A stretch of DNA of 64,000 nucleotides from Escherichia coli (GTDB taxonomy: Bacteria > Pseudomonadota > Gammaproteobacteria > Enterobacterales > Enterobacteriaceae), in the NCBI RefSeq assembly GCF_013315695.1, contig NZ_CP054353.1; one strand, 5' to 3'. Made by a program: the position numbers. Positions 48,001-54,000 of the stretch are shown here, piece after piece. Every line of letters starts with the position of its first letter. Position 1 is the stretch's first letter.

Positions 48001-51000
48001 CTTCGGTGGTCACGCCGAGCATACCTTCCGATCCGGTAAACAGCGCCAGCAGGTCAAAACCAGGCGAATCCAGCGCGTCCGATCCCAGCGTCAGCGCCTC
48101 GCCATCCAGCGTTTGCACTTCAATTTTCAGCAGGTTATGTACGGTTAGACCATATTTCAGGCAGTGAACGCCACCGGCATTTTCCGCCACATTGCCGCCA
48201 ATCGAACAGGCGATTTGTGAGGACGGATCCGGCGCGTAATAGAGATTATGCGGCGCAACGGCCTGGGAGATCGCCAGGTTACGCACGCCCGGCTGCACGC
48301 GCGCACGGCGACCAACGGGGTTAATGTCGAGGATCTCTTTAAAGCGCGCCATCACCAACAACACACCTTTTTCCAGCGGCAGCGCGCCACCAGAAAGCCC
48401 GGTGCCTGCACCACGGGTCACCACCGGTACACGCAGGCGGTGACAAACAGCCAGAATCGCTGTCACCTGTTCCATTTGCTTAGGCAGAACAACCAGTAAT
48501 GGACGCGTGCGATACGCGCTCAACCCGTCACACTCGTAAGGAATGATCTCCTCATCGGTATGCAGGATCTCCAGTCCAGGGACATGCTCACGCAGTGCCA
48601 TCAGTACCGATGTGCGGTCGACATCGGGTAAAGCGCCATCAAGACGCTCTTCGTACAAGATGCTCATGAGTAGGGTTCGCTTTGTTGTGTTGTGTGGCAG
48701 CTGATTTTTTCGCGCTGCTTCTGTGAACAGTTATTAAGCGGGCTTTTCGTTTTCGTCTATCTCTTTAGCTACCGGTCAGACCATTTTTTTTCCAGCTCTG
48801 TGACCTTGTCTTGGTTAACTTAATGTTAAATTGATGTAACATAATCACTTACGTGATGTGCGTGTTTTGCGAGTTAAGAACAGAAAAATTGGTCCTACCT
48901 GTGCACGAGGTCCGGGAATGAAAGATGAACGTCGCCCTATTTGCGAAGTGGTTGCAGAGAGTATCGAACGGTTAATTATCGACGGCGTACTGAAGGTCGG
49001 TCAGCCGCTTCCCTCGGAACGTCGACTGTGTGAAAAGCTCGGCTTCTCACGCTCCGCACTGCGTGAAGGGCTGACCGTGCTGCGCGGGCGCGGGATTATT
49101 GAAACGGCGCAGGGTCGCGATTCTCGTGTCGCACGGCTTAATCGGGTGCAGGACACCAGCCCGCTGATCCATCTGTTCAGTACGCAGCCGCGAACGCTGT
49201 ACGATCTGCTCGACGTTCGCGCATTGCTGGAGGGTGAATCGGCAAGGCTGGCGGCAACGCTGGGAACCCAGGCTGATTTTGTTGTGATAACCCGCTGTTA
49301 TGAAAAAATGCTCGCCGCCAGTGAGAACAACAAAGAGATTTCGCTGATCGAACATGCGCAGTTGGATCACGCTTTCCATCTCGCCATTTGTCAGGCTTCT
49401 CACAATCAGGTGTTGGTGTTTACGCTGCAATCATTGACCGATCTGATGTTTAATTCAGTGTTTGCCAGCGTAAATAATCTCTACCATCGACCACAGCAAA
49501 AAAAGCAGATCGATCGCCAGCATGCGCGGATCTACAACGCGGTGTTGCAGCGGCTGCCGCACGTCGCCCAGCGCGCAGCACGCGATCATGTGCGGACCGT
49601 GAAAAAGAATCTCCACGATATCGAGCTGGAAGGCCACCATTTGATTCGCTCGGCGGTGCCGCTGGAGATGAACAAGGTGGGAATGTGAGCCGAGTTTTCA
49701 CCCTCACCCTAACCCTTTCCCCGAGGGGCGAGGGATCGCCCCTGCGCTTAACAGGATCTGGTATTAAATCTGCTTTTCATACAATCGGTAACGCTTGTAC
49801 GGCTCTGCCCCAATGCGTTCCAGCATGTTATTCATGCCTGTATTGGTTTCGAGGATCCATGACATCTCCAGCGCATCGATCTTCCGGCGGGCAAACGGAT
49901 CGCGTAAGGCTTCAATCAATAACAACGCAATCACCGGGCCGATGCGGCTGAACTGATACTCGTCCCGCACGCCCATCAGCGGTACTCGCGCAGTTCGCAC
50001 ACCGCTGACTTTTAAACGCCACAGCAATTTTGCCCAGCCGAAGGGAAAGAGCGATCCGTTCAGATCGGCAATCGCCTCGTTGATGTTTGGCAAGCCGACA
50101 ATAAACGCGCAGGGTGCAGAATCAATCTCAGCGATGTAGATCATATCGTCCGGCACCAGATATTTAAGTTGGTCGCCCATGGTCGCGAATTCATGTTCGG
50201 TAAACGGCACAAATCCCCAGTTGTGCTGCCAGCCAGAATTGAAAATCTCACGCAGGATCTGCATCTCTTCGGCAAACCGCTGGCGATTGATGCAGCGAAT
50301 GGTCACCTTCTTACGCACCTGATCCATCAGTTTTTTTAGCGCCGGAGAGAAAGTGAGATCGGTTCGCTGCATCCACCACGCCAGTAAATCAATGCCTTTG
50401 TGATAACCCAATTGTTCAATATGCGCGGCATACCACGGTTTACCGTGCGGCATCATCGCACAGGGTGGTGTATCGAAACCTTCAATCAGTAATCCGCTTT
50501 CCTGATTGATATTCAGGCTGAAAGGCCCGCTGATCTTACTTGCACCTTGTGACTTCAACCACGCTTCCGCTGCGCCAAACAACGCGGCAAAAACCTGCGG
50601 ATCATCAATGGCGTCAATCATGCCGAAATGACCGGTATCTTTGCCGTAACGCTCGCGGTGCAAGGTATCTATTTGCGCGGTAATACGCCCAACTATCTGC
50701 CCCGCTTTTTTTGCCACCCACGCCTGCCAGATGATATGGTCCGTCCCCGGATTTTTCGCAGACAAATGCTCGTTGCGTTCAATGAATAAAGGGGGTATCC
50801 AGTTTGGATCGTCGGGATAAAGTGATGACGGAAAAGCGATAAATGCCTTAGGTGATGCTGCCAACTTACTGATTTAGTGTATGATGGTGTTTTTGAGGTG
50901 CTCCAGTGGCTTCTGTTTCTATCAGCTGTCCCTCCTGTTCAGCTACTGACGGGGTGGTGCGTAACGGCAAAAGCACCGCCGGACATCAGCGCTATCTCTG

Positions 51001-54000
51001 CTCTCACTGCCGTAAAACATGGCAACTGCAGTTCACTTACACCGCTTCTCAACCCGGTACGCACCAGAAAATCATTGATATGGCCATGAATGGCGTTGGA
51101 TGCCGGGCAACAGCCCGCATTATGGGCGTTGGCCTCAACACGATTTTACGTCACTTAAAAAACTCAGGCCGCAGTCGGTAACCTCGCGCATACAGCCGGG
51201 CAGTGACGTCATCGTCTGCGCGGAAATGGACGAACAGTGGGGCTATGTCGGGGCTAAATCGCGCCAGCGCTGGCTGTTTTACGCGTATGACAGGCTCCGG
51301 AAGACGGTTGTTGCGCACGTATTCGGTGAACGCACTATGGCGACGCTGGGGCGTCTTATGAGCCTGCTGTCACCCTTTGACGTGGTGATATGGATGACGG
51401 ATGGCTGGCCGCTGTATGAATCCCGCCTGAAGGGAAAGCTGCACGTAATCAGCAAGCGATATACGCAGCGAATTGAGCGGCATAACCTGAATCTGAGGCA
51501 GCACCTGGCACGGCTGGGACGGAAGTCGCTGTCGTTCTCAAAATCGGTGGAGCTGCATGACAAAGTCATCGGGCATTATCTGAACATAAAACACTATCAA
51601 TAAGTTGGAGTCATTACCTTAATTATTGACATATTACGTTGATTCACGAAAAACCCGGCAGCAAATAATGTATTGAATATTACGTGGTCCGTGCTCAGAA
51701 TATCCGTTCAACCTTATTGTGACAATGGTTAATTGTGACATTGACCTGAATTACGCTTTCATAAAAACATATTAACCAAATAAATATTTTTAATGGATAT
51801 TTAAATTAAAGGATATATTCATGCAGTCAATAACACCTCCATTAATTGCCGTTATTGGTAGCGATGGTTCAGGCAAGTCAACGGTGTGTGAACATCTCAT
51901 TACCGTTGTCGAAAAATATGGTGCAGCCGAAAGAGTTCATTTAGGAAAACAGGCTGGAAATGTCGGTCGTGCAGTGACAAAATTACCGTTGATGGGAAAA
52001 TCCTTACATAAAACAATTGAACGAAATCAGGTGAAAACAGCAAAAAAATTGCCTGGCCCTGTTCCGGCGCTGGTAATTACAGCGTTTGTCGCCCGTCGCT
52101 TACTGCGCTTTCGTCATATGCTTGCCTGTCGTCGTCGCGGGTTAATTGTTCTAACCGACCGTTATCCTCAGGACCAAATTCCTGGCGCTTACGATGGTAC
52201 AGTGTTCCCACCTAACATTGAAGGTGGTCGTTTTGTCTCATGGCTGGCAAGCCAGGAACGTAAAGCGTTTCACTGGATGGCGAGCCATAAACCTGATCTG
52301 GTCATCAAACTCAATGTTGACCTTGAAGTTGCCTGCGCGCGTAAACCCGACCATAAACGGGAATCGCTGGCGAGGAAGATTGCCATAACGCCACAGTTAA
52401 CCTTTGGTGGTGCACAACTGGTTGATATCGACGCCAATCAGCCACTGGAAAAGGTACTGGTTGATGCAGAAAAAGCGATTACGGATTTTATGACCGCGCG
52501 TGGTTATCACTAGTCAAAAATGGAAATGCCCGATCGCCAGGACCGGGCATTTTCAGGAAGGTTAAATCAACTGCAATGCTATCCAGTACAACCCACCAGA
52601 AAGAAAAATCGCCGCCGGTAAAGTAAACACCCACGCCATCAGGATGCTGGTTACCGTTTTACGCTGTAACCCACCGCCGTCCACCACCATCGTCCCTGCT
52701 ACCGCAGACGAGAGGACGTGTGTTGTGGAGACGGGCATCCCAATATAACTGGCAAGGCCGATAGACACTGCCGCCGTCATTTGTGCCGCCATGCCTTGCG
52801 CATACGTCATGCCGCGCTTACCAATCTTCTCACCGATGGTCATCGCTACACGACGCCAGCCAATCATGGTGCCGATGCCGAGCGCCAGTGCTACCGCCAT
52901 GATGATCCACACCGGTGCGTACTCAATGGTGCTTAACATATCGCTGCGCAGTTTTTTCAGCAGGTTCTGGTCTTCTTTACTGACGCCTGGCAGTTTCGCC
53001 AGCTTCGCGGAGGTATCAGAGATGCACAGCATAATGCGGCGCAGCTGGCTGCGCTGACTCACGCTTAACGGCTCGTAACTTTCCATATTGCCTGGCAGCA
53101 TCGTTTTAACGCGCGCAATCGCATCAAAGGTATTTGCCGGATGACAGTGAAACTCTGTTACTTGCGTGCCATCAGTCGATGTCGCAGGCAATGGAGGTTC
53201 CATCGTAATCAACTTCTGCGGCAGTTCAGGATGCTGTTGCAGGTAGTGTTCGAAGTTGGTGACGGCATCGCGGGTACGGGTAATTTCATAGCCGGACGCG
53301 TTCATATTGACGACGAAGCCAGCAGGGGCAATCCCCACCAGTACCAGCATTACCAGGCCGATCCCTTTCTGCCCGTCGTTAGCGCCGTGCGAAAACGCCA
53401 CGCCCGCAGCGGAAACAATCAGCGCAATACGCGTCCAGAATGGCGGCTTACGTTTGCCTTTTTTCTTTTTGCGATCTTCCGGAATGCGGTGAATACGGTC
53501 ACGCTTTTTCGTCCCGCTCCAGAAACGGCGCAGCAGGAAAATCAGACCACCCGCAATGACCAGGCCGACGATAGGGGAAACAATCAGCGAGGAGAAAATT
53601 TTGGTCACTTCACGCAGGTTTAACGCATCCATCACCGATGAGCCGGTTAACAGCGCGTTGGTTAAACCGATGCCGATAATCGCACCAATCAAGGTGTGCG
53701 AACTGGAGGCCGGTAAACCAAAGAACCACGTTCCCAGGTTCCAGATAATCGCCGCCAGCAGCATGGAAAAGACCATCGCCAGGCCGTGAGTTGACCCCAT
53801 ATTCAGCAACAAATCGGTTGGTAACATATGGACAATGGCATAGGCAACGCTAAGTCCGCCCAATAACACGCCAAAAAAATTAAAAAATGCCGCCATCACC
53901 ACAGCAAGTTGTGGTTGCATGGCACGAGTATAAATAACGGTTGCCACCGCATTCGCCGTGTCATGAAAACCATTGATTGCTTCGTAGAACAACACAAATG

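Follow-up and report, generated by a model that had tools for sequence, protein, structure and literature searches.

The analyzed window, a stretch of 64,000 nucleotides of an Escherichia coli chromosome, contains a complete, IS1A-like insertion sequence on the plus strand (positions 50851–51618). This element is 768 bp long and is identical to IS1A of K-12 at 767 of these 768 positions (reference copy: MG1655 19796–20563). Its left inverted repeat (GGTGATGCTGCCAACTTACTGAT, 50851–50873) and its right inverted repeat (51596–51618) match at 18 of 23 positions, consistent with the imperfect terminal repeats of about 23 bp that characterize the IS1 family. The reading frames insA (50906–51181) and insB' (51100–51603) are joined by programmed –1 frameshifting at an A6C motif (TTAAAAAAC at 51155), and match the Pfam profiles PF03811, PF12759 and PF03400 with E-values between 1e-21 and 2e-78; the profile names are Zn_ribbon_InsA, HTH_Tnp_IS1 and DDE_Tnp_IS1. 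In the genome of MSB1_4I, which differs from the window by one mismatch and one gap over 64 kb, PGAP likewise places an IS1A family transposase here. No further IS1 ends were detected in the 64-kb window. IS1 is abundant in this lineage, with at least about 40 matches counted on the chromosome as a whole.

To the left of the element, the minus strand encodes a 5'-truncated yghO (49764–50850). Alignment with the intact yghO of strain 2014C-3075 shows that 1087 of the 1143 native nucleotides are retained. Native YghO has 380 residues; the window copy has lost the first 56 nucleotides of the coding sequence including the ATG, and also the upstream intergenic region of 370 bp that contains the native promoter region. 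As a consequence, the native N-terminus MECDLLMIKIEKVINKNDL is replaced. The frame now continues for 14 nucleotides into IS1 (50851–50864, minus strand) and forms a chimeric open reading frame (49764–50864) encoding 366 residues that may be read from a TTG at 50864, inside the left inverted repeat, such that (M)AASP is joined to KAFIAF. In MSB1_4I, PGAP labels this frame of 1101 nt as "protein YghO". We found no convincing Shine-Dalgarno sequence upstream of the TTG by reading the sequence, and a promoter scan of the left end of IS1 detected no outward promoter-like site that could drive the chimeric frame. The automatic annotation denotes a promoter-less chimera in the window strain, most likely a dead remnant.

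The right side of IS1 is bordered by the first 29 nucleotides of the annotated, GTG-started yghS coding sequence (51619–51647, minus strand), as identified by alignment with the yghS-yghT region of K-12. This remnant is followed by the intact, AT-rich intergenic region between the divergent genes yghS and yghT (173 bp, 51648–51820). A promoter-like site in this region (51725–51697, minus strand) is now directed into IS1. The following gene yghT (51821–52513, plus strand) is intact and codes for a P-loop, dTMP-kinase-like protein of 230 residues. This is the only paralogue of the yghR/S/T set left in the window, and the only gene between IS1 and pitB. The 9 bp to the left of IS1 (50842–50850) read AATGCCTTA and lie in DNA of 28% G+C; those to its right, starting at 51619, read TTAATTATT. 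A simple insertion of IS1 generates a direct duplication on both sides, usually of 9 bp and occasionally of 8–10 bp. Realignment of the two flanks uncovered no such duplication. A preliminary description, made from the sequence alone, had reported a complete 768-bp IS1, a yghO frame that runs without a start codon into its left repeat, 9-bp flanks too different for a simple insertion, and a single yghT-like gene before pitB. Each of these statements is confirmed by the alignments described above.

To define the ancestral arrangement we used strain 2014C-3075 (coordinates L004), which carries no insertion sequence at this site. K-12 was rejected as a reference because its own copy of the locus contains an IS5 with unmatched flanks that bounds a deletion. 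In 2014C-3075, yghO starts 56 nucleotides further upstream than in the window, and a block of about 11 kb separates this gene from yghT. This IS-free relative therefore shares neither the gene content nor the yghO start of the window. The block contains eleven genes, coding for a fatty acyl-AMP ligase, an epimerase-family reductase, an acyl carrier protein (ACP), a serine palmitoyltransferase (spt), paralogues of LptG and LptF, a YtfJ-like protein and a hypothetical protein, followed by full-length yghQ, yghR and yghS. Both flanks of the window IS1 are colinear with this reference, ending at L004:14500 on the left and at L004:25492 on the right, so that the two 9-bp flanks lie 10,991 bp apart in the intact locus. 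IS1 thus sits exactly at the junction of a 10,991-bp deletion that removed the first 56 nucleotides of yghO, its promoter region, and the eleven genes, with yghS lost except for 29 nucleotides. The preliminary description was right in listing yghQ, yghR and yghS as absent, but underestimated the loss, having taken as its point of comparison K-12, which is itself a deletion derivative.

In the literature, the missing island is regarded as the putative sphingolipid locus of E. coli. The serine palmitoyltransferase of the reference matches the NCBIfam equivalog NF047599 with 599 bits (cut-off 500), and belongs to the alpha/beta/gamma-proteobacterial type. In 2014C-3075, the operon of spt also encodes an ACP of the PP-binding family and a fatty acyl-AMP ligase of the AMP-binding family, which qualify as AcpR- and AasR-type proteins; E. 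coli BL21(DE3) and B7A have been named as carriers of such genes next to spt (PMC9386255). The epimerase/dehydratase-family protein fits CerR at the family level only. Two further genes are annotated by PGAP as lptG and lptF, and a 2026 preprint depicts a "sphingolipid operon" with LptF/LptG homologues in E. coli UTI89. For YghO, considered as a candidate bacterial ceramide synthase (bCerS), Pfam and NCBIfam profiles gave no match at all, even at E = 10, and a homologue search and other sources name this protein only as an N-acetyltransferase of the GNAT type. YghR, YghS and YghT were considered as the ceramide kinase CpgB and rejected, since CpgB is a diacylglycerol-kinase-like protein with a GGDG motif and not a P-loop kinase. 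Our literature search found no demonstration of sphingolipid production by E. coli. Since all eleven genes are lost, spt among them, the predicted function of the island in sphingolipid synthesis and transport, and with it the putative sphingolipid pathway, is, judged at this locus, abolished in the window strain.

A search of 5426 complete E. coli genomes recovered the exact left junction of the window in MSB1_4I only, and the exact right junction in MSB1_4I and in one additional isolate, AF3. The IS1 of AF3 is identical to that of the window (768/768), and its right junction is the same (L004:25492). Its left junction is located at L004:15006, 506 bp further out, so that AF3 contains an intact yghO and 80 nucleotides of the acyl-AMP ligase gene. 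The additional 506 bases are 100% identical to 2014C-3075, and the flanks shared by AF3 and MSB1_4I contain no mismatch over 4151 and 4750 bp (8.9 kb). A deletion anchored at an insertion sequence classically shows one fixed and one moving junction. This is the arrangement found here, with IS1 at the junction, colinear flanks, a conserved right end and a left end that is displaced between AF3 and the window. Judging from these junctions, the window deletion is a nested extension of an older, IS1-anchored deletion.

K-12 lost part of the same island by way of another element. As the preliminary description had stated, yghQ, yghR, yghS and yghT of K-12 lie behind a different insertion sequence. 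In MG1655, an IS5 (IS5LO, insH9) truncates yghO 16 bp from the window junction. Like the window IS1, this IS5 has unmatched flanks (TTAA/CTAA). The associated deletion is shorter (about 8.4 kb, from L004:14517 to about L004:22903) and, unlike that of the window, spares the 5' 1068 nucleotides of yghQ as well as yghR and yghS. The yghO-yghQ region of K-12 is therefore a deletion scar.

IS1-bounded deletions of the island occur in at least nine other lineages; F11, EC931, F5656C1/ETEC O6:H16, E100341, 1506, STK78-E, EM20-18-50 and the STEFF_1 group are examples. Like the window, these genomes contain a single IS1 without duplication between yghO and yghT. They differ in having their own endpoints (left, L004:14332–15006; right, L004:25314–25938) and IS1 copies that are 91.5–99.9% identical to the window copy, in two cases in the opposite orientation. 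These differences indicate that the deletions are separate events. Their endpoints gather in the AT-rich intergenic DNA on either side of the island, and both of these regions have also received IS1 insertions in many genomes. Besides the deletion-bounding IS1 it has in common with F11, EC931 contains another IS1 in the same orientation 504 bp away; this copy is a simple insertion into yghO, flanked by the duplication GTTGCGTTC. This strain therefore represents a natural two-IS1 intermediate in another lineage. In EM20-18-50, too, yghO contains an additional IS1, here flanked by the duplication CCACGCCTG. Island loss through IS activity is thus recurrent in E. coli, which matters to anyone studying the spt island. 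The serine palmitoyltransferase gene is present in 4093 of the 5426 complete genomes and missing from about a quarter, and yghO is kept in 4538.

How did the window junction form? We lean toward an IS1-anchored deletion that proceeded in steps. An IS1 would have inserted into yghS, at its AT-rich 5' end, with a target around L004:25492–25500 (TTAATTATT). Through its left end, this element would then have undergone intramolecular transposition (adjacent deletion), with the loss of about 10.5 kb to its left, up to a position 80 nucleotides inside the acyl-AMP ligase gene. AF3 preserves this intermediate state. In a second change, carried by the window and MSB1_4I, another 506 bp have been lost, so that the deletion now reaches the 5' end of yghO, which is AT-rich, while IS1 and the right junction are unchanged. 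A target-site duplication would be missing because its original left copy left with the deleted DNA. IS1 prefers AT-rich targets, and the composition of the right junction (36% G+C) and of the left junction of the window fits this preference. The left junction of AF3 is of ordinary composition (52% G+C), for which target preference alone is insufficient. The postulated first state, a simple IS1 insertion in yghS with a duplication of TTAATTATT, was absent among the 5426 complete genomes. The proposed course has well-described precedents. In the classical IS1-adjacent deletions of the gal/chl region, attributed to intramolecular replicative transposition, the element is kept at a junction without duplication, only one of the two junctions moves, growth is stepwise and endpoints are AT-rich; we see no difference in kind. 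A long-term evolution experiment documented stepwise growth of IS-adjacent deletions with the same order of insertion, adjacent deletion and extension, again without duplications (PMC11708052), although the elements belonged to the IS3 family and the population was a laboratory one.

The junction sequence is equally compatible with one-step adjacent deletion and with recombination between two IS1 copies. The preliminary description had already named both, and its reading of the site as an IS1-associated deletion is supported by the colinear flanks and the nested junction of AF3 and withstood the comparison with the IS-free 2014C-3075. By recombination, two IS1 copies in direct repeat, each inserted with its own 9-bp duplication in one AT-rich flank, would have excised the island through a RecA-dependent crossover, leaving one hybrid IS1 with unmatched flanks. 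For the 506-bp step, a further IS1 would have entered yghO at the target AATGCCTTA and then crossed over with the resident copy. EC931 demonstrates that such an intermediate can arise, and the additional yghO copy of EM20-18-50 points the same way. IS1 insertions are attracted to both flanking regions in many genomes, and copies are plentiful in the genome (at least about 40 matches). We regard this course as a serious if somewhat doubtful competitor, because each step demands two events, against one for adjacent deletion, and because the complete genomes contain no two-copy intermediate in the lineage of MSB1_4I and AF3; the outcome is otherwise the same. A second IS1 or a matching 9-bp sequence had been suggested as the mark of a recombination partner. 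The window contains no second IS1 end, realignment gave no matching duplication, and two-copy states were found in other lineages, in EC931 and EM20-18-50.

Two further explanations would dispense with part or all of these events. An assembler could have collapsed two IS1 copies 506 bp apart, one as in AF3 and one newly inserted in yghO. Assemblies are known to fail in this way at repeated IS copies, and since the left junction of the window recurs among complete genomes in MSB1_4I only, no second assembly confirms it. We nevertheless consider such an artefact highly improbable, given that the deposited MSB1_4I chromosome is complete and circular. AF3, which was sequenced in another country, independently confirms both the right junction and the 10.5-kb deletion, and even a collapse would alter only the 506-bp step. 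Finally, no deletion would be required if IS1 had simply inserted in a lineage without any history of the island, and the absence of spt from so many E. coli genomes lends this idea some initial appeal. It is refuted by the missing duplication and by gene remnants on both sides, which show that the island was once present: the left flank stops inside the yghO coding sequence, the right flank begins inside that of yghS, and AF3 retains part of the ligase gene.

The case is an ordinary IS-mediated deletion, which is textbook biology, and it alters nothing in the understanding of IS1. If the stepwise, IS1-anchored course holds, the locus offers a clean natural example of such a deletion, with a preserved intermediate in AF3 and a two-copy intermediate elsewhere in EC931. 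Across E. coli we observe many independent deletions bounded by IS1 or IS5. Nearly all of them take out the entire block, with endpoints in the two AT-rich flanks. It is conceivable, though in our view unlikely, that loss of the island has been repeatedly selected instead of reflecting neutral decay at an IS hotspot. Under selection, the deletion pattern would indicate that the island is costly to fitness, or that losing only part of it is toxic. Toxicity of this kind has a precedent in Caulobacter, where the LptF2/G2 homologues are undeletable in cells that make the anionic sphingolipid CPG2.

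The complete IS1 in the window (50851–51618, plus strand, insA end facing yghO) is 768 bp long and differs at one position from IS1A of K-12 MG1655. The terminal repeats agree with each other at 18 of 23 positions, the A6C frameshift motif lies at 51155, and the two frames between them match the three Pfam IS1 domains. Since the 9-bp flanks, AATGCCTTA and TTAATTATT, differ, there is no target-site duplication around this copy, as the preliminary description had stated. A search of the 64-kb window with up to three mismatches allowed returned no second IS1 end. The reference IS1A of K-12 (19796–20563 of its locus, L015) likewise lacks a 9-bp duplication (flanks GTAATTGCT and TACCTCAAT).

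Strain 2014C-3075 preserves the undeleted arrangement (locus L004, in whose coordinates all junctions are given). There, yghO is followed by a 370-bp divergent intergenic region and the ~11-kb putative sphingolipid island, which opens with genes for a fatty acyl-AMP ligase, an NAD-dependent epimerase/dehydratase-family protein, an acyl carrier protein and serine palmitoyltransferase (Spt). The other strand codes for LptG- and LptF-like permeases, a YtfJ-family protein and a hypothetical protein of 274 aa; the island also contains YghQ (450 aa, polysaccharide-biosynthesis/flippase family) and, at its distal end, yghR and yghS. These names agree with Pfam and NCBIfam matches, and Spt scores 599 bits, above the NCBIfam equivalog cut-off of 500. 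Most complete E. coli genomes carry the island, as judged from spt, which 4093 of the 5426 possess. A Spt/AcpR/AasR trio has been listed for bacteria including E. coli B7A and BL21(DE3) (PMC9386255), and in a 2026 preprint E. coli UTI89 is drawn with a "sphingolipid operon" that includes LptFG homologues, alongside those of Caulobacter and Sphingomonas. YghO matches no family in Pfam or NCBIfam and is named only "N-acetyltransferase" in the sources; it may or may not be the ceramide-synthase-type acyltransferase. YghR, YghS and YghT form a set of P-loop paralogues that weakly resemble dTMP kinase. The yghT gene has an internal stop in island-positive 2014C-3075 (25694–26386) and is intact in the island-negative window (51821–52513).

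K-12 has the order yghO-IS5-yghQ-yghR-yghS-yghT-pitB, in line with the preliminary description. Its IS5 (5147–6341 of the K-12 locus, L001) starts only 16 bp past the junction of the window's IS1 and marks the edge of a deletion that took 8.4 kb out of this island, from 14517 to about 22903. The IS5 flanks are unequal (TTAA and CTAA) and the right one falls in the middle of full-length yghQ, which rules out K-12 as the ancestral reference. K-12 is a non-ancestral state for the island, and this deletion makes its "yghO" and "yghQ" both truncated remnants.

Both flanks of the window's IS1 map to L004 at 100% identity across 60 bp, the left ending at 14500 and the right beginning at 25492. Hence, 10,991 bp are missing. 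The loss takes 56 nt from the start of yghO, the intergenic region between yghO and the ligase gene, ten complete genes and, from the 714-nt yghS, 685 nt. The preliminary observation is confirmed and the idea of an IS1-linked deletion is supported, with corrections to the reference state (K-12) and to the size of the loss. From 51619 the right flank aligns to K-12 starting 29 nt within the annotated yghS coding sequence; the 173-bp yghS–yghT intergenic region is intact and leads into yghT.

The window is matched with one mismatch and one gap over 64 kb by MSB1_4I (NZ_LR898874.1, 790918–854917, reverse strand). The sister isolate AF3 (NZ_OZ547117.1, UK blood culture) shares the right junction, and its IS1 is identical over all 768 bp. 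On the left, AF3 keeps yghO whole, and the junction is at 15006, 80 nt into the gene for the acyl-AMP ligase. MSB1_4I and AF3 show zero mismatches over 4151 bp leftwards and over 4750 bp from IS1 rightwards, and the 506 bp present only in AF3 are identical to 2014C-3075. In the set of 5426 complete genomes, these two isolates alone have the exact right junction, and MSB1_4I alone has the exact left one. By this comparison, an older deletion of 10,485 bp was extended by 506 bp to give the nested state of the window, and IS1 and the right junction stayed as they were.

That IS1 bounds a deletion is established, and AF3 supplies a preserved intermediate, in support of the earlier suggestion of IS1-mediated adjacent deletion or recombination. 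The way in which the DNA was removed is inferred. Intramolecular transposition from the left end of IS1, the classical adjacent deletion, would take one event per step; it is the simpler route and the one we cautiously favor. Exactly the same product would arise if a second IS1 inserted in direct orientation and the two copies then underwent homologous recombination, a course that we regard as plausible at somewhat under even odds. Strain EC931 shows that this route is real at the yghO–yghT locus. It has two directly repeated IS1 copies (L014 3132–3899 and 4404–5171), 504 bp apart in the same orientation. One bounds the island deletion and is shared with F11 (14925|25524); the other entered yghO by simple insertion and is flanked by a perfect duplication of 9 bp (GTTGCGTTC). 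This pair is a natural substrate for further recombinational deletion. Collapse of two IS1 copies during assembly could mimic the 506-bp step only and is very improbable. Taking adjacent deletion and inter-IS1 recombination together, an IS1-associated deletion is very likely. The same succession of insertion, adjacent deletion and extension has been reported for IS150 in the long-term evolution experiment (PMC11708052). As an IS1-associated deletion the feature is textbook biology, and a public annotated genome already contains it; what makes it a neat case is that other isolates preserve intermediates of either kind.

The remaining yghO frame (49764–50850, minus strand) reaches directly into IS1. 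Native YghO of 2014C-3075 has 380 aa and the N-terminus MECDLLMIKIEKVINKNDLKAFIAF; homologues from other genera (374 aa) cover 98% of it, consistent with a start at MIKIEK. In the window the frame opens at KAFIAF, preceded by five IS1-repeat codons beginning with TTG, and the chimeric 366-aa ORF is annotated by PGAP as "protein YghO". We read no convincing ribosome-binding site 5' of this TTG, and a promoter scan returned no outward promoter-like site within IS1. The sole nearby minus-strand candidate (51697–51725, TTGTCA-17-TATTCT) lies in the yghS–yghT intergenic region, which is retained, and could be the promoter that natively serves yghS. It now faces IS1, where it runs antisense to insAB', and further on points to what is left of yghO. 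The truncated yghO is most likely dead; its presumed pathway partners are gone in any event.

IS1-bounded deletions of the island recur in F11 (14925|25524), F5656C1 (14332|25314), 1506 (14550|25578), STK78-E (14486|25806) and EM20-18-50 (14638|25938), and with IS1 in opposite orientation in E100341 (14485|25393) and STEFF_1 (14954|about 25399). All seven lack a target duplication. Their IS1 copies are 91.5–99.9% identical to that of the window, which indicates independent events. The yghO–yghT gap has shrunk to within about 3 kb in 34 genomes of at least 17 size classes, two with IS5. At least 20 further genomes (e.g. ATCC 8739, LR-71-1 and SCZE5) have larger IS1-bounded deletions that start in the 5' region of yghO and reach gss, taking yghT and pitB with them. 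O157:H7 genomes match the pitB/gss portion of the query only and seem to lack yghO through yghT. Deletion endpoints cluster at two AT-rich troughs of the reference (G+C of 32–36% at 14400–15000 and 35% at 25500–25800, compared to about 52% within the island). IS1 prefers AT-rich targets, and this preference is a sufficient explanation for the clustering; selection for island loss is a possible but unlikely reading.

Elsewhere, the window contains a CP4-like remnant with cbtA/yeeU toxin-antitoxin genes and an IS110 fragment (1–5440), a K1-type group 2 capsule locus with neuB, neuC and an alpha-2,8-polysialyltransferase gene (about 6250–22250), the adjoining T2SS-beta gsp cluster (about 23300–35100) and sslE (about 35200–39760). 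Between glcC and yghO (49677–49757) lies a ~75-bp GC-rich palindrome-like repeat insertion (…CACCCTCACCCTAACCCTTTCCCCGAGGGGCGAGGGATCGCCCC…), absent from K-12 and 2014C-3075; the same +75 bp occurs in some other genomes. It replaces the last glcC codons, so that GlcC ends in …EMNKVGM and the PGAP glcC measures 771 nt versus 765.
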